This document shows, piece after piece, positions 8,834-22,726 of a stretch of 64,000 nucleotides of DNA. Position numbers and translations under genes: made by a program. The notes below the pieces were generated by a model that did no database searches, was not told the DNA's origin, and saw only the letters and a list, made by a program, of their open reading frames with translations. Each line of letters starts with the position of its first letter. Within the stretch, counting starts at the first letter, position 1. This stretch comes from a virus. The stretch lies in IMG/VR virus record IMGVR_UViG_3300011008_000186; one strand, 5' to 3'.

Positions 8834-9016
8834 TTACTCCTTCCCTTCGGTGGTAACAGGTTCGTTTTTGTCTTTCTTGGGCAGAAGCTTAATATCACAG
8901 ATTCGCTTTGTCGGATCTATTACTGACGCTCCGATTGTTGCAAATCCGGCTATTGCGCCAAGTGATACAGATAGAATCTGTAGCCCTACTCCAATAGGCA
9001 TGTTTTTGATTGACAT
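8834..9016 (-). CDS. Small membrane protein
   Basis: 60-aa ORF, hydrophobic GVGLQILSVSLGAIAGFATIGA. Confidence 0.45.
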   Translation of the reverse strand: MSIKNMPIGVGLQILSVSLGAIAGFATIGASVIDPTKRICDIKLLPKKDKNEPVTTEGKE

Positions 9017-9046
9017 AGTTACAAATCTCCTTTCAATTAAAAATAT

Positions 9047-9083
9047 ATAAAAAAGAAAAGAGGAGACTTTTTTAAATCTCCTC
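9047..9083 (-). terminator. Rho-independent terminator
   Basis: GAGGAGA/TCTCCTC 7-bp stem followed by a T-run on the minus strand. Confidence 0.65.
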
Positions 9084-9092
9084 TAATCTTAA

Positions 9093-9212
9093 TTAACCTT
9101 TTCTTCCAAATCGCTTGGAAGGATTTACACAAAAGGTACCAATAATAGTTACAATACTGCCCGCACATGTTAATACTGCTCCTGCAATTAAAACTAATAC
9201 TACTACTAACAT
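9093..9212 (-). CDS. 39-aa hydrophobic micro-protein (below the ORF-track cutoff)
   Basis: Hand translation gives MLVVVLVLIAGAVLTCAGSIVTIIGTFCVNPSKRFGRKG. SD AGGAGGATTAATAAAATG. Has its own promoter-like element and terminator. Confidence 0.4.
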   Translation of the reverse strand: MLVVVLVLIAGAVLTCAGSIVTIIGTFCVNPSKRFGRKG

Positions 9213-9243
9213 TTTATTAATCCTCCTATTTTGTGAAAGTTTA

Positions 9244-9275
9244 TTCTTATCATAATAGAGGACTAAAATTTCGCG
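9244..9275 (-). promoter_or_regulatory. TTCGCGAA-type promoter-like element, copy 2 (variant CCGCGAAA)
   Basis: Minus strand CCGCGAAATTTTAGTCCTCTATTATGATAAG. Confidence 0.45.
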
Positions 9276-9276
9276 G

Positions 9277-9933
9277 CTAATGACAATCCTGGTAATCCGG
9301 TCTCGGCGGCTCCGGATAAGTTAAAATATAATAATACGATCCATCATCTCGAACCACCTTTTGATGCTGAAAGTCTATCCATTTACAAAATTCTTTGTCC
9401 CAGCAATATACATCTCCTAATGCATTTCTTGGACGATCCTGCTGCAAAGATAAATAAAAATAAAAATCATTAAGATAAACTTTGTCGGACAATGCGAATA
9501 TCCGGTTGATGTCATACTCCGCAGCAAATAAATCCATCAATCGAATCTGAAACCAGCCGGCATTTTCTTCTTCGGATTCTCTTCTAAAATCTTCAAATAT
9601 CCATACAAGGTCATCGAGATCTTCATCTATTATGATTTCCTGACGTTCGATCATTTCCTTTAAACCGGATGCAGCAAGTAAACCACCACCAGCCAAGGTC
9701 GACAGTAATGCAGCTTTTTGTTTTCTGTTTAGTACATCAGAAAATATAATAGACGCACCCGTAACACCAAACGATATAGATGTCGGTATGTAATGTTTCA
9801 GAATTTGCTTTTTAGGTTTGCCCGATTCGATATCTGTAAATGCCTTAAGAGTATCATGAATCGCCAAAGCAGTAGTTGTTGCTAAACCCGCCATGCTGGT
9901 TACGGTTAATATCGTCGACAATTTATTATTCAT
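9277..9933 (-). CDS. Membrane protein (paralogous architecture to 5790-6704 and 8058-8831)
   Basis: ORF track gives 9277-9948. The second ATG at 9933 has a GAGGA SD. Helices LSTILTVTSMAGLATTTALAI and ISFGVTGASIIF. Confidence 0.55.
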   Translation of the reverse strand: MNNKLSTILTVTSMAGLATTTALAIHDTLKAFTDIESGKPKKQILKHYIPTSISFGVTGASIIFSDVLNRKQKAALLSTLAGGGLLAASGLKEMIERQEIIIDEDLDDLVWIFEDFRRESEEENAGWFQIRLMDLFAAEYDINRIFALSDKVYLNDFYFYLSLQQDRPRNALGDVYCWDKEFCKWIDFQHQKVVRDDGSYYYILTYPEPPRPDYQDCH

Positions 9934-10411
9934 GGTCGTCGTCCTCATTAATAGGCGGAGTCATTTTAGTAGAAAAATCTCCTTCCATTGCGCATATAAA
10001 AGCCATATTACATGCAGCATGTTTATAATGCGGAATGCCTGATTCTGAATCGACTCCTGCTGGATCATCAATATACGCAAGAAGATGACGAAGCAAAGCA
10101 TCCACGTATCGTTTCTTTTCTACAGTCTTCCAATTGTCTGGATCACCATATTTTTTATTACCATACATTCTGACCTCAGCAATATCACGAATGATCTGTG
10201 TTGGAACCAAGCTGATCTGAAGCTTTCCTTCATCCGCTTTCGCTGTCTGATTATCCAGAGACAATGACTTTTTAAAATAGTTTTCATATGATACCGGTTC
10301 GGTTGCTAATACATCATCAAATAAGCAATGATCGGCACCTTCCGCCATGTTACGATAATTGAAACTTGATTGCGGATGCCTTTCGTTACCAAATATAATC
10401 TTTTGAGTCAC
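9926..10411 (-). CDS. MazZ-like dNTP pyrophosphohydrolase domain protein (DUF5664-like)
   Basis: Core EGKLQISLVP..YGNKKYGDPDNW..LLRHLLAY..DSESGIPHYKHAACN matches my memory of the dATP/dGTP diphosphohydrolase N-terminal family. GTG start without a clear SD. The first 33 aa are encoded by the 99-bp repeat shared with the polymerase. Confidence 0.55.
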   Translation of the reverse strand: MTQKIIFGNERHPQSSFNYRNMAEGADHCLFDDVLATEPVSYENYFKKSLSLDNQTAKADEGKLQISLVPTQIIRDIAEVRMYGNKKYGDPDNWKTVEKKRYVDALLRHLLAYIDDPAGVDSESGIPHYKHAACNMAFICAMEGDFSTKMTPPINEDDDHE

Positions 10412-10450
10412 GAGCTAAGAAATCGCCTTGAGTATGTTTAAATACTGCTT
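10298..10450. repeat. Repeat locus B: permuted copy of locus A (20 bp + 99 bp + 25-bp unique insert + 15 bp)
   Basis: 10298-10317 = 1316-1335; 10312-10410 = 1204-1302; 10436-10450 = 1303-1317; 10411-10435 has no counterpart. Confidence 0.9.
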
Positions 10451-10778
10451 TGCGACATATCGGCGGTATTCCGTATGTAGAATTTAATGCATTTATCGGC
10501 ATGCGTTTTTGCAATTTTAAACTATTTTTGTAATCATTATCTTTTATTGCGGGTACCGCTCGGCCATCCAAATATTTAATAATAAAATCACCGATATTAA
10601 CTGAGTGAATTTGAGGCAAAGCAATAGAGTTAATATCTGGCGAAGATTCATAAAATAAGATCGATACACTAAAATCTTCAAGATGCATATGAGTTCTAAT
10701 AAAGCGATCACCTAAAAATTTTTTAACGGAATCCAAATTCTGTCCGGTGTATTCGATTACCTTCAACTTATTATCCAT
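10386..10778 (-). CDS. Hypothetical protein; its 3' end lies inside repeat locus B
   Basis: 130-aa ORF with SD AGGAGG. Removing the 25-bp insert 10411-10435 would fuse it in frame to 9926-10411. Confidence 0.5.
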   Translation of the reverse strand: MDNKLKVIEYTGQNLDSVKKFLGDRFIRTHMHLEDFSVSILFYESSPDINSIALPQIHSVNIGDFIIKYLDGRAVPAIKDNDYKNSLKLQKRMPINALNSTYGIPPICRKAVFKHTQGDFLARDSKDYIW

Positions 10779-10802
10779 TTTTCTAATTCCTCCTAAATAT
10801 AA

Positions 10803-10991
10803 TTAAGCTTTGGGCTTACCTACTATACCTTCGTCCCATGCTTTCCAAGCCTCTTTCGGCGTTTCATATCCATACGAAGTTCGTTTTCGGCAGTTTGGAC
10901 AGCTGATCCAATAAACATCCATACTTCTTTCATCAGCAGAAGTTTTATGATACTCATTTACTTTCGGAACTTTTCCGCAGCACTTTCGCAT
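10803..10991 (-). CDS. Lar-like restriction-alleviation zinc-ribbon protein
   Basis: CCGK..ISCPNCRKRTSYGYETPKEAWKAWDEG resembles the Lar family pattern (Cys pairs, then eA..aWN). Confidence 0.45.
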   Translation of the reverse strand: MRKCCGKVPKVNEYHKTSADERSMDVYWISCPNCRKRTSYGYETPKEAWKAWDEGIVGKPKA

Positions 10992-11151
10992 CCGAATCTC
11001 CTTTCTTCCAGTGAACCGGTTTATGTGAATTAGTATTCACCGGCTCGTCGAGGCAGTCATCGCATGGGCTGTCTTCTTCTGCTTTGCCGTAGAATCTGCA
11101 AGTAGGACAATAAACATCAAAAAACACTTCCTTGAGTTCGTTTACTTCCAT
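10954..11151 (-). CDS. Small zinc-ribbon protein
   Basis: 65-aa ORF with CPTC...CDDC. Confidence 0.45.
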   Translation of the reverse strand: MEVNELKEVFFDVYCPTCRFYGKAEEDSPCDDCLDEPVNTNSHKPVHWKKGDSDAKVLRKSSESK

Positions 11152-11153
11152 TA

Positions 11154-11774
11154 TTAATTCTCCTTTTTTCGTATATCGATACGACCGTAGTCATAAATAT
11201 CAATAGCAACTTCAAAATCCGCATGTGGCGAATTCAATACAACTTCGTCTATCTGTGTATCGAATATCGGACTATTCGAAAAATTCTCCGTGAACTTACT
11301 AACATTTTCAGCAAATGCCTCTGCGTCTTCTTTCCTTCTGAAGAAATAATAATCTTCAAACGGATCGCCATCATCATATGGGTTATCAGACAGTACCGTG
11401 CATCGATAAGTTGTAATATCGCATCCATAAAGTGATTGTAAGCGGTTTACATCTTTTGAAGTGTGGCCATCCCAATGCTTAGCTGTTTCGAGTTCCTGGC
11501 ATGTAAACTTATACCAATGCTTAAGTTCATAATGATAAGTATATGATCCTCTTGGCGTATCGATCCCGACTATAAAGTATTCACCATTAAAACATGGACT
11601 TCCATCTTCATGTCTTTTGCTTTTCCAAGATCGCTCAGGATAAGCATCAACTAAAGCTATTGTTAAATATAATCTCTGCTCATAAAGATCGTTGAATGTA
11701 TGATAACCATCGGACAACTCTCCGATTCCACCCTCTGGTATTTTTGTTAATAAATCTCTAGCTAACTCTGCCAT
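11154..11774 (-). CDS. WDGH-domain-like protein
   Basis: 206-aa ORF with SD AGGAGG. Contains YHTFNDLYEQR and KHWDGHT signatures. Confidence 0.5.
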   Translation of the reverse strand: MAELARDLLTKIPEGGIGELSDGYHTFNDLYEQRLYLTIALVDAYPERSWKSKRHEDGSPCFNGEYFIVGIDTPRGSYTYHYELKHWYKFTCQELETAKHWDGHTSKDVNRLQSLYGCDITTYRCTVLSDNPYDDGDPFEDYYFFRRKEDAEAFAENVSKFTENFSNSPIFDTQIDEVVLNSPHADFEVAIDIYDYGRIDIRKKEN

Positions 11775-11801
11775 TTTAATTACCTCCTATTTTTAGACAA
11801 T

Positions 11802-11835
11802 AAAAAGGAGCGGTTTAAAGTCTCGCTCCAAGACT
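11802..11835 (-). promoter_or_regulatory. Conserved hairpin element (T-element), copy a, variant stem
   Basis: Plus-strand GGAGCG-gtttaaagtct-CGCTCC. It has the same 11-nt loop as the other five copies, and its innermost stem pair is G-C instead of A-T. Confidence 0.6.
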
Positions 11836-11861
11836 GTTTTAGTGGTTTAAAATATAATTAA

Positions 11862-12197
11862 TTATTCATCGAATGCCGGACAACTCGCTTTACATTCTGG
11901 ATAAGGTCCACCACAATTAGCGCATCCCCATGGGATATCACTAGTGTCTTCATATTCCCAATCGTCTTCGTCCATAGTATATCCGCAATTAAAGCATTTA
12001 AATTCTCGTTCCAAATTGCTGTATCTCATCTCAATACCGCATTCGGGGCAATTTGGACAAAAGCCGGAATAATCAGGAATATCATGATAACCTTCGTCAT
12101 CATCATCGGGACCATATCCGTGAAGTCGATCGTGCGCATATGAGCTTTCCGGATGATCGCCAGAACCAGAAAATATATTACCTAAAAACTTGAACAT
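11862..12197 (-). CDS. Acidic Cys-rich (multi zinc-ribbon) protein
   Basis: 111 aa; CPNCPECG..CFNCG..CANCGG..CKASC; D/E-rich. Confidence 0.55.
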   Translation of the reverse strand: MFKFLGNIFSGSGDHPESSYAHDRLHGYGPDDDDEGYHDIPDYSGFCPNCPECGIEMRYSNLEREFKCFNCGYTMDEDDWEYEDTSDIPWGCANCGGPYPECKASCPAFDE

Positions 12198-12259: not shown

Positions 12260-13246
12260 TTATTTCGATTCTTCCAAAATGTTTATTCCGATTTTTTCTT
12301 TGACTTTTAGCGCAATTTCATTGATCGATTTACGTCCAAGATTCCTAATATTTTGGAGTTGTTCAAGATGAGATTTTCCCGGACGCGAATCCAAATAGCA
12401 CAATAGATCGTCAATTGTATGTATCCCTTTCCGGATAAGACAGTTGCGGGATCTTACTGACAGTTCAAGTTCATCGATGGACTCTAAATATAAATTTATT
12501 TCGTTGACGTCCACATCTTTCGAATTAATTAATTGAGTTTTTCTTTTAATATATTCTTCATACTCTTTTTCAAAAAGCTCAATCTCTTTCTTTCGCTGAC
12601 ATCCATTATAGCCATATAATATCAATGCGCTACGAGAACTATGACGCATTTTTCGAACAGCTTTGGCAATTATCTGCCGTATTCGCTCTCTAGTAACATG
12701 AAACTTTTTTGCAATTTCATCATACGTCTCATTATTCTGATAGTAGCAAATAATACAATCCCTTTCTCTCTGTGAAAGCATCTGCAGCGCATTTGCTAAA
12801 CCTTGTTCCTGATCGTTAGTAAGCATAGAGTTGCCATTCAAATAATCGCTTCCGTTAAAAATAACATCGAGCAGGTTATAAGGATAAGGAGCAATAAAAC
12901 CATCCGGTATTTCAATAGTTTTATTCTTATTCCTTGGAACTTTCTGAGAATAAAGATACTGTTCATATGAATTTCTACGGGCTAAATTGTAAAAATTAGC
13001 AAGTAACATCTTTATATCATGTTCTTCTAATTCGGTCAGGTTCGTTCTTCCTAAAATATAATCTGTCGGAACCATAAAGAAATCGGCCATCGCCATCAAA
13101 GTATTAACAGTCGGAGCTGCGTACATGCCGATGTAATTTTTTAACTGAGTTTCCTTGATTCCTATTTTTCTAGCGAGATCTCTTTGCGAAATCTGAGCCA
13201 AATCCATTAGTTCTTTTAATTTACTTGAATCCCATTTTTTATTCAT
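12260..13246 (-). CDS. Chimeric transcription factor: XRE-type HTH + sigma-70 region-4-like + RNAP alpha C-terminal-domain-like
   Basis: N-terminal ISQRDLARKIGIKETQLKNYI (XRE helix-turn-helix, HTH). Middle LSQRERDCIICYY..TYDEIAKKFHVTRERIRQIIAKAVRKMR (sigma region 4). C-terminal IDELELSVRSRNCLIRKGIHTIDDLL..IRNLGRKSINEI (alphaCTD helix-hairpin-helix). No sigma region 2 seen. Confidence 0.7.
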   Translation of the reverse strand: MNKKWDSSKLKELMDLAQISQRDLARKIGIKETQLKNYIGMYAAPTVNTLMAMADFFMVPTDYILGRTNLTELEEHDIKMLLANFYNLARRNSYEQYLYSQKVPRNKNKTIEIPDGFIAPYPYNLLDVIFNGSDYLNGNSMLTNDQEQGLANALQMLSQRERDCIICYYQNNETYDEIAKKFHVTRERIRQIIAKAVRKMRHSSRSALILYGYNGCQRKKEIELFEKEYEEYIKRKTQLINSKDVDVNEINLYLESIDELELSVRSRNCLIRKGIHTIDDLLCYLDSRPGKSHLEQLQNIRNLGRKSINEIALKVKEKIGINILEESK

Positions 13247-13248
13247 AT

Positions 13249-13611
13249 CTAATTCTCCTTATTTTGTTTTTTTTTTTGGCACCAAATCGGTTGATTATCA
13301 TTTTCATCAATATCATCGTTCTCTGAAAATTTATGAAGCGTATTCAATCCAAAGCATTCGTTCGTGAATAGATCCATACACCCTAAACATCCGGAAGGAA
13401 TGATACTTTTCAATGGTTTTTCGTTATCTCTGATAAGAAAGCCACAATTCTGCATGTCATTAATATACTCTTCGAATACGGTGCCCTGAAATAAAGAAGA
13501 GAGAGGGATAAATTGATCCCCCTCGTCGTTCATGATTAATCCAAAATTCCGTTTAATTATTGCAAATTGATTACGAAATTCACTTTTATCTAGTTCTGCT
13601 GCTAAAATCAT
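13249..13611 (-). CDS. Hypothetical protein
   Basis: 120-aa ORF. TAG stop 2 nt upstream of the next ATG. Confidence 0.55.
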   Translation of the reverse strand: MILAAELDKSEFRNQFAIIKRNFGLIMNDEGDQFIPLSSLFQGTVFEEYINDMQNCGFLIRDNEKPLKSIIPSGCLGCMDLFTNECFGLNTLHKFSENDDIDENDNQPIWCQKKKQNKEN

Positions 13612-14295: not shown

Positions 14296-14325
14296 CTCGT
14301 ATTAGGGAGTCAAAATTTCGCGAAA
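14296..14325 (-). promoter_or_regulatory. TTCGCGAA-type promoter-like element, copy 3
   Basis: Minus strand TTCGCGAAATTTTGACTCCCTAATACGAG. Confidence 0.45.
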
Positions 14326-14356
14326 AGAAAAAGAGCCTCTTAGAATCGAGACTCTT
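14323..14356 (-). terminator. Rho-independent terminator
   Basis: GAGTCTC/GAGGCTC 7-bp stem (one G-U pair), then TTTTTCTTTT on the minus strand. Confidence 0.6.
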
Positions 14357-14379
14357 CGTCTTAAAATATAATCTTCGAG

Positions 14380-15940: not shown

Positions 15941-16456
15941 TTACTCTATTTTTATTCCGGTTATTTCTTCAAAAATATCCGCATCAAAATTGGGTAATGC
16001 CTTGATTTTTTCTTCATCGCCGTCAATAAGTGTTTTATCATTTATGCGGCAGCATAATTTGCAAAAATTATAATCAAGCGCATTCAGCCATTCACTTCTT
16101 GTCATGTCATATTCCCGGTTAAATGCTCTCAGCTTCGGTTCGTTCGTATTGAATATTCCACTGTTGTAGTTTCCACTGTTGTAGTTTCCGCTGTTCCAGT
16201 TTCCACTGTTGCAGTTTCCGCTGTTGTGTCTTCCACTGTTCCAGTTTCCGCTGTTCCAGTCTCCACTGTTCCAGTGTCCACTGTTGCGCATTCCGCTGTT
16301 GTAGTATCCACTATTGTGCATTCCGCTGTTGCAGTTTCCGCTGTTGCAGTTTCCGCTGTTGCCGTTTCCGCTGTTGCAGTTTCCACTGTTGCGCATTCCG
16401 CTGTTGTAGTATCCACTATTGTAGTTTCCACCAAAACTTTGTCCCTTCCTGTTCAA
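15941..16456 (-). CDS. Pentapeptide-repeat protein (about 20 x NSGxx) with a globular C-terminal domain
   Basis: GNYNSGYYNSGMRNSGNCNSG... with strict 5-aa periodicity. TTG start. Overlaps the upstream ORF by 41 nt in another frame. Confidence 0.65.
   Translation of the reverse strand: MNRKGQSFGGNYNSGYYNSGMRNSGNCNSGNGNSGNCNSGNCNSGMHNSGYYNSGMRNSGHWNSGDWNSGNWNSGRHNSGNCNSGNWNSGNYNSGNYNSGIFNTNEPKLRAFNREYDMTRSEWLNALDYNFCKLCCRINDKTLIDGDEEKIKALPNFDADIFEEITGIKIE
16146..16432. repeat. 15-nt-period tandem DNA repeat encoding the pentapeptide array
   Basis: Repeating ttccactgttgcagt-like units. These explain the spurious ORFs 16129-16434(-) and 16226-16489(+). Confidence 0.85.
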
Positions 16457-20565: not shown

Positions 20566-20973
20566 TTATTCGCGAATCTTATTGAGTATCCAGAAAAACT
20601 TCCTATATTCTTCATAGTAAACATCTCTCGAAATTGAAATATTCGTATTCATTGACAAATATGTATACGATAGACCGTAAATCACAGCTTTTAAAATATA
20701 ATCGCCATCTTCTACTTGTGCCGCTGCCCGTTCGACCATTTTCATTCGTGTCTGGTAAAAATCTCTGGCGACTGCGGTCCGTCCTGTAGGATCAGAAAAT
20801 CCGGTGCCTCTAATGCCAGATCCATCGATTATGCGTTTAGACAATCCGTCCAGACTATAATAAGCACTTTGCCATATTGGATACTGCATACAAAAATGCT
20901 TCAGCTCATAATATCGATGCTTGGGAATATAATATTTATTTTTGTATGAAATCTCTGGTCTAACCTGATTCAT
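20566..20973 (-). CDS. RinA/ArpU-like (sigma-4-like HTH) phage transcriptional regulator
   Basis: C-terminal ISISRDVYYEEYRKFFWILNKI resembles the IS.rtYYr.k.kA HTH of that family. Second gene of the leftward early operon. Confidence 0.4.
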   Translation of the reverse strand: MNQVRPEISYKNKYYIPKHRYYELKHFCMQYPIWQSAYYSLDGLSKRIIDGSGIRGTGFSDPTGRTAVARDFYQTRMKMVERAAAQVEDGDYILKAVIYGLSYTYLSMNTNISISRDVYYEEYRKFFWILNKIRE

Positions 20974-21180: not shown

Positions 21181-21244
21181 AATATAATTAAGTTCAGCTT
21201 AATCTGTCAAGCAGCATTTTACAGATGAATTTTTTAAAAGTCAA
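21181..21244 (-). promoter_or_regulatory. Two tandem sigma-A-type leftward early promoters
   Basis: On the minus strand: TTGACA (21205-21210), 18-nt spacer, TATATT (21181-21186); and TTGACT (21239-21244), 17-nt spacer, TAAAAT (21216-21221). Confidence 0.65.
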
Positions 21245-21276
21245 GCGGATTTTAAGCAAAACTTAATCAAATTCAG

Positions 21277-21305
21277 TTGAACTTTACTAAAAAGTGGAAT
21301 ATAAT
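21277..21305 (+). promoter_or_regulatory. Sigma-A-type rightward promoter for the repressor-integrase operon
   Basis: TTGAAC (21277-21282), 17-nt spacer, TATAAT (21300-21305). SD AAAGGAGG, then GTG at 21338. Confidence 0.65.
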
Positions 21306-21337: not shown

Positions 21338-21676
21338 GTGAATAATGATCTATTTTCTAAACGTTTTAATCGGGCTATAAAAAGCAAAAATATAACACAG
21401 AAAGAATTAGCTAAATTGACGAATTTATCTCCTGCAGCGATCAATCAGTATGTTAAAGGAATATATCAGCCAAATCGGGAGAATCTTAAAAAAATAGCAA
21501 ATGCTCTTGAGGTTGATATTGTATGGCTGCAAGGATACGACAAAGACGAAATACCGCCAAACGGGGAAAAATTTAAAAGAGTAATAGAAATTTGCGATCA
21601 GTTAAATGCAACAGGGCTTGATCGTCTAATTGAATATGGAAAAGACATTCTCGGAAAATACGGAAAGGAGCAATAA
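21338..21676 (+). CDS. cI-like XRE-family repressor
   Basis: ITQKELAKLTNLSPAAINQYVKG HTH. Divergent from the early operon and co-oriented with the integrase. Confidence 0.85.
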   Translation: MNNDLFSKRFNRAIKSKNITQKELAKLTNLSPAAINQYVKGIYQPNRENLKKIANALEVDIVWLQGYDKDEIPPNGEKFKRVIEICDQLNATGLDRLIEYGKDILGKYGKEQ

Positions 21677-22726
21677 ATGGCCAAATATAGTAAATATATA
21701 ACATTAGGGTATAATTCGGACGGAAACCGTGTAAGGAAACGAGCTTACGGCAACACAAAAATCGAATTGGAATCAAATATAGCCAGGTTAAAAAGAGAAT
21801 ATCTTGAATCGATTGCCAATAATCACGTAACGTTTAAAAAGTATGCACAAACTTGGCTCAACACATATAAAAAAGGGACCTCGCCGAGAACTTATGATAT
21901 GTATGATCAGTTATTGAAGAAGTGCAAAGAGCTCGATCCGTTCGAAATGATGGAGATCAAACGATCCGATATACAAAATCTGATGAATGATTTAATAGAT
22001 AGACCGAATCTGCATAACAAAGTATTAATGTGCCTTAATCAGGTGTTTGAGTCGGCAATAATGGACGAAATCGTTCGAATTAATCCGGTAAAAGGAATAT
22101 CAAAGCAAAAAACAATAGTAAAAGAAAAACGTGCGTTGACAACAAACGAGAAAAGAATACTAGCAACTATCAACTTCGAGCCGAAAGAACAGATGTTTAT
22201 TGATCTGCTTCTCAATTTTGGATTACGTCCTGGAGAAGCACTTGCGTTAACAAAAGATGACTTCGATTTCGCAAATAATACATTGACCATCAGCAAGGCG
22301 ATTACTTTCGTTACTAATGATCCTATATTAAAGGGTACAAAAACCGGGACAGTTAGAACGCTTCCCATCCCGGCTTCATTAGTACCCAAAACGAAACAAT
22401 ACCTTGACGAATCTGAAAATATACTTTTTGACATGCAAAAACAAGGAGACTATGGATATATGACAAAAATGGCCTACCGAATATTCAAAAATGAAATATT
22501 CGAGAAAATTAATATTGCATTAGGAGGTAACAATAATAATGACAAGTTAAACGGTATGACTTTTTATACTTTCCGACATAACAAAGCTACTGCTTTATAC
22601 TATGTGGATGGGTTGAGTTTAAAAGCCAAGGCGGAGTATATGGGTCATTCGGTAAGCATGCTTCTTAAAATATATTCTCATATTGACAAGGAAAAGGAAA
22701 ATAGCGAAAAATATAATGTGATTTAA
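21677..22726 (+). CDS. int: Tyrosine integrase
   Basis: LRPGEALAL (Arg), FYTFRHNKAT (His-x-x-Arg), GHS..LLKIYSH (His, Tyr). N-terminal SAM-like domain. Confidence 0.95.
   Translation: MAKYSKYITLGYNSDGNRVRKRAYGNTKIELESNIARLKREYLESIANNHVTFKKYAQTWLNTYKKGTSPRTYDMYDQLLKKCKELDPFEMMEIKRSDIQNLMNDLIDRPNLHNKVLMCLNQVFESAIMDEIVRINPVKGISKQKTIVKEKRALTTNEKRILATINFEPKEQMFIDLLLNFGLRPGEALALTKDDFDFANNTLTISKAITFVTNDPILKGTKTGTVRTLPIPASLVPKTKQYLDESENILFDMQKQGDYGYMTKMAYRIFKNEIFEKINIALGGNNNNDKLNGMTFYTFRHNKATALYYVDGLSLKAKAEYMGHSVSMLLKIYSHIDKEKENSEKYNVI

Follow-up and report, generated by a model that had tools for sequence, protein, structure and literature searches.

This analysis concerns a 64,000-nucleotide (nt) stretch of viral DNA, IMG/VR record IMGVR_UViG_3300011008_000186 (hereafter the window; position 1 is its first letter), and an open reading frame (ORF) in it at 12260..13246 on the minus strand, which encodes 328 amino acids (aa) from ATG through stop. 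The window holds a temperate siphophage-like genome with an integrase gene (21677-22726), a gene for a 112-aa HTH_3 repressor (21338-21676), a long unidirectional minus-strand early array that leads to a DUF5906 primase, and structural genes beyond. The ORF is not placed at the lysogeny switch, where the separate 112-aa repressor adjoins the integrase, but ~8 kb downstream of it, inside the early array, and its start abuts the stop of the preceding ORF.

An annotation made from the letters alone (the sequence-only reading) had described the product as a chimera of an XRE-type helix-turn-helix (HTH), a sigma-70 region 4 and the C-terminal domain of the RNA polymerase (RNAP) alpha subunit (alpha-CTD). 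All three modules score above the Pfam gathering cutoffs: HTH_3 at residues 10-64 (38.4 bits, cutoff 23), Sigma70_r4 at residues 153-202 (59.0 bits, cutoff 24.1, E 3e-16) and RNA_pol_A_CTD at residues 252-317 (61.1 bits, cutoff 23.8, E 9e-17). The signature strings quoted for region 4 and the alpha-CTD are present in the sequence as written, and the profile searches proposed as a check on the three segments bear out both assignments with the E values just given. The stated absence of sigma region 2 agrees with Pfam, in which neither Sigma70_r2 nor the models for regions 1 and 3 (r1, r3) match at E<=10. NCBIfam sigma models align to residues 137-211 only, and TIGR02937 aligns only over its model positions 103-165. 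The alpha N-terminal domain (alpha-NTD) was not detected either, TIGR02027 scoring 52.8 bits against a cutoff of 227.8 and spanning only model positions 218-295, and a repressor C-terminal oligomerisation or S24 peptidase domain is absent in Pfam, the C-terminus being occupied by region 4 and the alpha-CTD. Judged by its domain content, the 328-aa protein is not a sigma factor, because region 2 is absent, not an alpha subunit, because there is no alpha-NTD, and not a CI/Cro-type repressor, because its C-terminus and its gene position differ.

The AlphaFold2 model (predicted local distance difference test, pLDDT, 87; predicted template modeling score, pTM, 0.55) consists of three well-folded domains connected by long helices and loops, including a single long helix over residues 213-241 of the linker between region 4 and the alpha-CTD. 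In Foldseek searches, each domain of this model of the protein alone matches its expected fold, as the sequence-only reading would have it: template modeling (TM) scores are 0.8-0.87 for the XRE domain against the HTH domains of ImmR, SinR and P22 c2, ~0.7 for region 4 against SigA region 4, and 0.82 for the alpha-CTD against 1z3e_B. A whole-chain structural analogue was not found by Foldseek in the PDB or BFVD. By sequence, the closest solved structures are primary sigma factors (SigA/RpoD region 4) and the Bacillus subtilis alpha-CTD (1z3e_B/3gfk_B). Region 4 is ~40% identical to primary sigma and aligns to a primary-sigma profile with Prob 99.9 and E 2e-32 (hhalign); its recognition helix VTRERIRQIIAKAVRKMRHSSRS nearly matches that of SigA/RpoD, and the RERIRQ stretch is identical. 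The alpha-CTD is nearest to Firmicute RpoA and carries a ~9-aa insertion between its two helix-hairpin-helix motifs.

In Escherichia coli, sigma70 R584, E585, R586, R588 and Q589 contact the -35 element, alpha R265, N268, C269, G296, K298 and S299 contact the UP element, and R603 of sigma region 4 (sigma4) and alpha positions 259/261 are where the two domains contact each other on DNA. Residue conservation was assessed in 66 homologues with an overall identity of ~35% (30-40%). The equivalents of the five -35-contacting residues are kept in 83-100% of the homologues, only that of R584 falling below 95% (83% in the long forms). Moreover, the equivalents of K593, R596, K597, R599, H600, R603 and L607 are conserved in 80-100%, with L607, the flap-tip contact on the C-terminal helix H5 of sigma, invariant in the long forms. 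In the alpha-CTD, the equivalents of R265, N268, C269, N294, G296, K298 and S299 reach ~100% conservation, and an acidic residue stands at positions 259 and 261 in ~80-88% of the homologues. Given that these contact residues are near-invariant, both modules retain their DNA-reading and mutual-contact residues, a pattern in keeping with selection that acts on DNA binding in the native arrangement and not on the fold alone.

The same closeness to host surfaces would also suit a decoy, in which the sigma4 and alpha-CTD copies titrate binders of those RNAP surfaces, such as Spx, Spo0A-type activators or the factors of competing phages. Both surfaces are targeted by regulators and phage factors (Spx contacts the alpha-CTD [1z3e], and gp67 and AsiA act on region 4), the gene is accessory, and one large family member fuses three Spo0A_C domains to the module. 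However, near-invariant base-contact residues in both domains would be unneeded in a pure protein decoy, and, by alignment to 1z3e_B/3gfk_B, the 328-aa protein has R in place of the Spx-contact tyrosine. We regard the decoy as quite improbable.

Flap-tip-like motif, core module and family

Ahead of region 4 lies a short amphipathic motif in which P122, N124 and L125 do not vary among 40 long forms. It has the form YPYNLLxxIF, with the hydrophobic spacing i, i+1, i+4, i+5 of the flap-tip helix of the RNAP beta subunit. That helix is EEKLLRAIFGEKA in E. coli and EERLLHAIFGEKA in B. subtilis, as checked in PDB RpoB chains, and has the consensus (E/R)LL(R/H)AIFGEKA in these chains; against the E(E/R)LL(R/H)AIFGE of RpoB, members of the phage family read NLLDDIFGE, NLVAAIFGE or ERLYKDIFG. 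The pattern L-h-x-x-[IVL]-h (h, hydrophobic) occurs in 131 of 178 family members, relative to 4 of 58 true sigmas and 20 of 178 shuffles; with F it occurs in 53 of 178 members versus 0, and with F/h plus G in 31 of 178 versus 0. In the flap tip itself, it is L901, I905, F906 and G907 that enter the pockets of binding partners (PMC6755090). The AlphaFold2 model shows a 7-residue helix at 123-129 with a pLDDT of 93 amid loops at 56-67 on either side, as expected if the helix is docked on a domain, and the sigma4/flap-tip chimeras 3T72, 6IDO and 7KUF are among the sequence matches. We infer that the motif may be a built-in flap-tip-helix surrogate that fills the flap-binding groove of region 4 in cis. 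Descent of YPYNLL from sigma region 3.2 (HLGDFIED) was considered, as tblastn alignments extend there; this origin was dropped because profile-profile alignment, which stops at region 4.1, does not support it, and the likeness to the flap tip was preferred.

Because the flap-tip-like motif precedes it, region 4 would be a self-contained DNA-binding unit rather than an RNAP-docking domain. The proposal in the sequence-only reading, a device for re-targeting or bridging host RNAP, may hold, but on this ground it is not the best-supported one. A resemblance to the helix whose hydrophobic patch region 4 binds could also be put to use in trans: the motif would then pull host SigA region 4 off the beta flap, acting as an anti-sigma element, with the protein's own region 4 and alpha-CTD as anchors on DNA. 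No precedent for such an arrangement is known, the motif is degenerate in many members, and the protein's own region 4, only 10-30 residues away, should win in cis; hence this is a highly improbable mode of action.

The motif, region 4, a helix of ~50 aa and the alpha-CTD, in this order, form the family core, and the 328-aa protein has all four. The core was defined by a (Y)P(Y)NL-h-x-x-[IV] motif, a region 4 with RERIRQ, a charged helix of 30-60 aa and an alpha-CTD with R265/N268/G296. Short forms, ~27% of the members, start at the (Y)P(Y)NL-L-x-x-I motif, 10-30 residues N-terminal of region 4.1, and are without any other DNA-binding domain; the core therefore appears sufficient for function. 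Among 174 parsed members (those of <=420 aa), 48 have no N-terminal extension, 24 have one of 15-60 aa, 100 one of 60-140 aa and 2 one of >140 aa. The extensions include various XRE HTHs, a MerR/excisionase-like HTH and a ~260-aa domain of no assigned kind, and one 1003-aa member (P0127) carries three Spo0A_C domains in its extension. Because the extensions differ in kind between members, the XRE HTH is, on this comparison, optional, being just one among the interchangeable heads that the constant module can carry. The linker measures 45-58 aa across the family (interquartile range), with 43% E/K/R/D/Q and 32% aliphatic residues.

The heads raise the possibility of an operator-specific phage regulator. 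The XRE HTH would pick a few operators, region 4 and the alpha-CTD would serve as auxiliary DNA-binding domains or as contact surfaces for the host alpha-CTD or SigA region 4, and a small set of phage genes would be activated or repressed. The N-terminal domains are sequence-specific types that differ between phages (XRE variants, MerR/excisionase-like, Spo0A_C), both members of the contact pair formed by R603 and the alpha 261 determinant are kept, and two tandem paralogues on another contig (L006) are bracketed by canonical promoters with a shared 25-nt upstream element. Yet about a quarter of the family lacks an N-terminal domain, no repeated candidate operator was found in the window except the TTCG box discussed below, which fails to track the gene, and within its phage group this gene is dispensable; we therefore consider this regulator unlikely.

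The L006 paralogues, 347 and 377 aa long, lie at 8880-11400 of a 199-kb contig, and both have the three domains. The promoters around them are strong and repeated, of the form CAATTGACA-N17-TATAAT, and their conserved upstream element, ataacgcaaattctacggattt, is a possible operator for the paralogues. As a separate matter, alpha-CTD-like domains are widely reused. P0127 combines its three Spo0A_C domains with sigma4 and three alpha-CTDs, two alpha-CTD repeats stand at the C-terminal end of a PhoH/PIN-like ATPase, as many as 11 such repeats occur in some proteins (reuse seen in P0127, at L100 3945-6041 and in P0128), and other fusions involve ResIII/helicase, SAM-like and TfoX_C domains.

The architecture is not a one-off. 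An identical protein (P0001) is present on five metagenomic contigs. A word-indexed search found ~60 clusters (310-380 aa, 30-40% identity) in which all three domains recur, and also many proteins of 200-250 aa that carry region 4 and the alpha-CTD only. A profile search, in which P0001 itself scores 226 bits (E 3e-62), recovered 2,249 proteins at E<=1e-30, or ~2,250 clusters at 50% identity, among 1.84 billion representatives; metagenomes or metagenome-assembled genomes (MAGs) are the source of every one of these clusters. In the genome collection, most full-length (region 4 plus alpha-CTD) matches are MAGs of gut or rumen Clostridia, the remainder being one Spirochaetaceae MAG and a few isolates (Pilosibacter, Pectinatus); the 50,697 GenBank phage records contain no full-length homologue of either the long or the short form. 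The source names of the members are generic automatic labels ("sigma-70 family", "XRE", "YlxM", "alpha subunit"), the full-text literature yielded no description of a sigma4/alpha-CTD fusion, and BFVD no annotated analogue. The ORF thus belongs, as far as these searches tell, to a large family for which no description was found. The impression of the sequence-only reading that the architecture is undescribed accordingly agrees with the literature search. It had also allowed that the protein might prove to be of a common, already annotated family with an unrelated function: common the family is, but it carries only generic automatic names, and so does not count as already annotated.

Homologues occupy a similar place in four other phages. 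Those of L008, L129 and L130 lie 5-9 kb after the integrase, and that of L017 is in the same early array, on a contig that ends upstream. Across 26 family loci no neighbouring gene is conserved, and an obligate partner gene was accordingly rejected. The ORF is best described as an early gene of accessory character in a temperate phage that infects gut or rumen Clostridia, the host being assigned because a homologue of another early gene of the phage group is annotated in a Lachnospiraceae genome.

TTCG-box promoters and the ORF

The sequence-only reading had noted that the ORF sits among TTCGCGAA elements. These are real: the window has 6 exact copies against 1.4 expected, and a position weight matrix (PWM) finds 10 copies of the box, all on the gene strand (Table 1). 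Each cassette is laid out as a terminator hairpin with a T-run, TTCGCGAA, exactly 12 nt, and T(A/T)(A/T)TA(T/C)G. The promoter class can be written as TTCGnnAA at -32..-25, a moderately conserved aTTtACA, and TATAATG 12 nt past the box. The same architecture is found in relatives, with TTCGTAAA as the box in L017 and TTCGCAAA in L008 and L130; it is also found in L129, and TTCGCAGA is another variant among related phages. Because the box varies in this way, the palindrome of TTCGCGAA is incidental. Over seven related phages the PWM scores 59 times, each time on the gene strand, and not once in 1.12 Mb of control phage DNA.

One such cassette heads the stretch that contains the ORF. Its terminator-like hairpin spans 14357-14330 and its box, with a PWM score of 33 bits, 14317-14324. 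From there to the ORF no further promoter-like cassette occurs, and this putative promoter probably drives the gene. Canonical -35 promoters in the phage are limited to the lysogeny switch, and the 10-11 downstream promoters are without a normally placed -35 element.

Gene and promoter class can be separated in both directions. In the prophages L131 and L134, the integrase, a 135-aa early gene, DUF6353 and DUF5906 follow in the same order as in the window phage, and the promoter class is present (3 and 8 gene-strand PWM hits, 0 on the opposite strand), although the stretch from switch to primase, within the ~10 kb examined on either side, has no sigma4/alpha-CTD gene. Conversely, L128 has the gene and no TTCG-box promoter, and 23 other family loci (305 kb) give 3 weak PWM hits only. 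The promoter class therefore belongs to the phage group and not to the ORF. Since the gene is absent from L131 and L134 yet present in unrelated phages, it is dispensable within the group, which is typical of a host-directed accessory early gene and not of a core activator of the phage programme.

The sequence-only reading had further placed the XRE HTH on the TTCGCGAA palindrome and the alpha-CTD on its A/T flank. This pairing is not supported, given the variation of the box, the two-way dissociation, and XRE recognition helices that are unrelated (KETQLKN, TPKSLSE, SAQMLRT) in phages with nearly the same box. Reading the TTCG box as an inverted Spo0A box (TTCGnCA) is weak, as only TTCG and one A agree. 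Besides the TTCG box, the window has no repeated candidate operator.

These promoters bear most directly on the idea of an RNAP-docked surrogate, in which the phage sigma4 would replace SigA region 4 on the beta flap, add its alpha-CTD and XRE HTH, and redirect the polymerase to phage promoters. The delayed-early box at -32..-25 lies exactly 12 bp from the -10 element, which is also the box-to--10 spacing of phage T4 middle promoters, and the family protein is the only ORF common, at the BLAST level, to all five box-bearing phages that carry a family gene; in addition, the L607-equivalent flap contact and the whole basic patch are retained. However, the dissociation (L131 and L134 on one side, L128 and the other family loci on the other) speaks against this role. 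A recognition helix that is the same as that of SigA would leave the -35 specificity unchanged after the swap, the XRE recognition helices differ though the box is constant, a flap-tip-like helix in cis would compete with docking on the real flap, and the gene itself lies downstream of a TTCG-box promoter. On balance, we think a docked surrogate unlikely.

What does co-occur with the promoter class is the highly conserved 135-aa early protein (Table 1), a candidate activator of the TTCG-box promoters. It forms ~950 clusters at 50-60% identity, mostly from prophages, with a Lachnospiraceae isolate among the sources; Pfam and NCBIfam give no match, and its all-helical AlphaFold2 model (pLDDT 84) has no PDB fold match. 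A split sigma, with the 135-aa protein as sigma2-like partner, is unsupported on the same grounds, that is, no Pfam or NCBIfam match and no PDB fold match.

Possible mode of action and known counterparts

The explanation that we favor, though tentatively, is that the 328-aa protein is a free-standing replica of the face with which the holoenzyme reads upstream promoter elements, a module built from pieces captured from the host transcription machinery, and that it competes with the SigA holoenzyme. Region 4, held in a holoenzyme-like state by the built-in flap-tip-like helix, would bind -35-like hexamers; the alpha-CTD would bind the adjacent A/T-rich minor groove and touch region 4 as in RNAP; and the XRE HTH would supply a third, phage-specific contact. 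Occupancy of such sites would then compete with the SigA holoenzyme at -35-dependent promoters, those of the host and perhaps those of the phage's own immediate-early switch, while the delayed-early TTCG-box promoters, which have no -35 element at the normal position, would escape. The short forms, the accessory status of the gene and the conservation of base contacts fit this replica. The switch promoters (Table 1) are listed as candidate phage targets only because the replica explanation predicts -35-type binding.

A broader version is more a conjecture that we find somewhat doubtful: that a single-chain replica of the holoenzyme face acts as a "promoter mask" on -35/UP elements, steered by interchangeable N-terminal domains (XRE, MerR-like, Spo0A_C), in >2,000 clusters from phages of gut and rumen Firmicutes.

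Several points weigh against the replica. Its DNA specificity is a prediction from residue conservation, and its likeness to the flap tip, which is sequence-based, is complete (including the G) in only 17% of the members; moreover, a crude test for covariation between the motif and the H5-like segment gave a null result (p = 0.86). Since the basic activator-contact patch (K593-H600) and the flap-contact position are retained, region 4 could equally well still dock on RNAP. The linker, at 45-58 aa, is longer than needed to put the alpha-CTD beside region 4, and stoichiometric occlusion of many host promoters would be costly relative to binding RNAP. Finally, the variety of N-terminal domains (XRE, MerR-like, Spo0A_C) suggests defined operators and not global masking.

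Among known systems, the 328-aa protein would, from its sequence, work most like the sigma4/alpha-CTD/flap-tip assembly of RNAP and like artificial sigma4/flap-tip chimeras. With the upstream assembly of the RNAP holoenzyme (beta flap tip, SigA region 4, alpha-CTD) it shares the two domains and their DNA-contact residues, the pair formed by sigma4 R603 and the alpha 261 determinant, and a flap-tip-patterned helix beside region 4. In contrast to RNAP, a single chain of 328 aa unites the parts and lacks a catalytic core, sigma region 2/3 and alpha-NTD; RNAP has nothing that corresponds to the domain order or to the 50-aa helical linker, and an XRE HTH is added. Engineered sigma4/flap-tip chimeras (3T72, 6IDO, 7KUF) and two-hybrid alpha-sigma4 chimeras likewise join region 4 covalently to the flap-tip helix or to alpha in a stable, DNA-binding-competent unit. 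They are artificial, and their flap-tip helix follows region 4, to which a short Gly/Ser linker ties it, whereas the phage protein is natural and its helix is N-terminal, only flap-tip-like, and presumed to dock.

The small RNAP-binding proteins gp67 of Staphylococcus aureus phage G1 and gp39 of Thermus phage P23-45 act at the junction of sigma4, flap and alpha-CTD. They address the same node, -35/UP recognition by region 4 and the alpha-CTD, but are unrelated in sequence to the 328-aa protein, which copies RNAP parts and is a predicted DNA binder. XRE repressors, RinA/ArpU, Mor and Q also use an HTH_3 or a sigma4-type HTH in phage transcription regulation, but the region 4 of the phage protein is far closer to primary sigma than are RinA/ArpU, Mor and Q. 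The 328-aa protein has no homology to gp33, RinA/ArpU, Mor or Q beyond the shared HTH: Mor (15.7 bits versus 24.9, E 0.016) and Phage_antitermQ (15.4 versus 26, E 0.018) stay below threshold, and the PHROG matches (phrog_836, E 0.0028; phrog_79, E 6e-5) are confined to the HTH. Nor is there homology to AsiA or MotA in Pfam or PHROG. In T4 middle promoters, a MotA box centred near -30 is found instead of the -35 element (PMC6755090). The window phage resembles the T4 AsiA/MotA system in having an early function that would deal with -35-dependent transcription and later promoters with a box near -30 and a normal -10 element. It differs in that AsiA and MotA bind sigma70 itself, and in that the box promoters are, on comparative evidence, independent of the gene.

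If the replica explanation holds, copying the promoter-reading modules of the polymerase onto one chain would be a strategy different from that of known factors; to our knowledge, the known phage reprogrammers of host transcription (AsiA/MotA, gp67, gp39, gp33, Gp2) bind RNAP or sigma. Promoter competition by a copy of the polymerase's reading head would then be a so far undescribed principle of host takeover or regulation. The domains are known ones, in an architecture for which no description was found, and the principle may be new. Even if the decoy or the docked surrogate proved true, RNAP-directed phage proteins would gain a new class with this family. For specialists, the surprise lies in a natural flap-tip/sigma4/alpha-CTD chain and in its abundance; its function is what we infer. 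The protein may also offer a natural soluble sigma4/alpha-CTD unit with which to study how Firmicutes recognise -35/UP elements, a case in which flap-tip-helix mimicry can be tested and, possibly, a compact tool to block or recruit at promoters.

Other features of the window

Table 1. Positions of the ORF, its predicted parts and the other elements discussed (window coordinates)
Feature	Position	Strand	Basis
Whole ORF: XRE HTH, flap-tip-like motif, sigma region 4, helical linker, alpha-CTD	12260..13246	-	ORF listing, Pfam
Ribosome-binding site AAGGAG, 8 nt 5' of the ATG	13255..13260	-	direct sequence reading
N-terminal XRE/Cro-CI-type HTH, residues 8-67	13046..13225	-	HTH_3 38.4 bits; Foldseek
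Amphipathic motif PYPYNLLDVIFNG, residues 120-132, candidate mimic of the beta flap-tip helix	12851..12889	-	conservation, pattern match
Primary-sigma-type region 4, residues 144-212, recognition helix VTRERIRQIIAKAVRKMRHSSRS	12611..12817	-	Pfam, hhalign, PDB alignments
Charged helical linker, residues 213-246, possibly a coiled coil or rigid spacer	12509..12610	-	AlphaFold2; role presumed
RpoA-type alpha-CTD, residues 247-320	12287..12508	-	Pfam, PDB alignment, Foldseek
Terminator hairpin and TTCG-box promoter TTCGCGAA-N12-TAATACG, head of the cassette containing the ORF	14298..14357	-	
TTCG boxes	20569, 20247, 20035, 19694, 18201, 17788, 16058, 14807, 14317, 9270 (and 8028)	gene strand (-)	PWM
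135-aa protein, second gene of the early operon (phrog_11237)	20566-20973	-	
Canonical divergent promoters of the lysogeny switch: TTGACA-18-TATATT and TTGACT-17-TAAAAT (-), TTGAAC-17-TATAAT (+)	21181..21305	both	consensus scan

The neighbouring early genes at 9926-10411, 11154-11774 and 10803-12197, all on the minus strand, encode a dATP/dGTP diphosphohydrolase N-domain, a WDGH-domain protein and several small Cys-rich zinc-ribbon proteins, and three DUF6353 paralogues lie further downstream. The minus-strand ORF 15941-16456 contains a coding tandem repeat (16165-16405) with a 15-nt period, AACAG[CT]GGAAACTGC, in ~16 copies; its product is a pentapeptide-repeat protein (DUF7666/Pentapeptide_2 in an identical contig).

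The 9-mer ATTATATTT (AAATATAAT on the plus strand) is a polar oligomer, with 38 copies on the gene strand (minus) and 1 on the other, ~2 being expected. Its sites span 380 to 42538 in the window and fall in all codon phases as well as at intergenic or ribosome-binding-site-spacer positions. The strand bias recurs in relatives (8/0 in L017, 6/0 in L008 and 6/0 in L130), and one copy (13054-13062) lies inside the 328-aa ORF.

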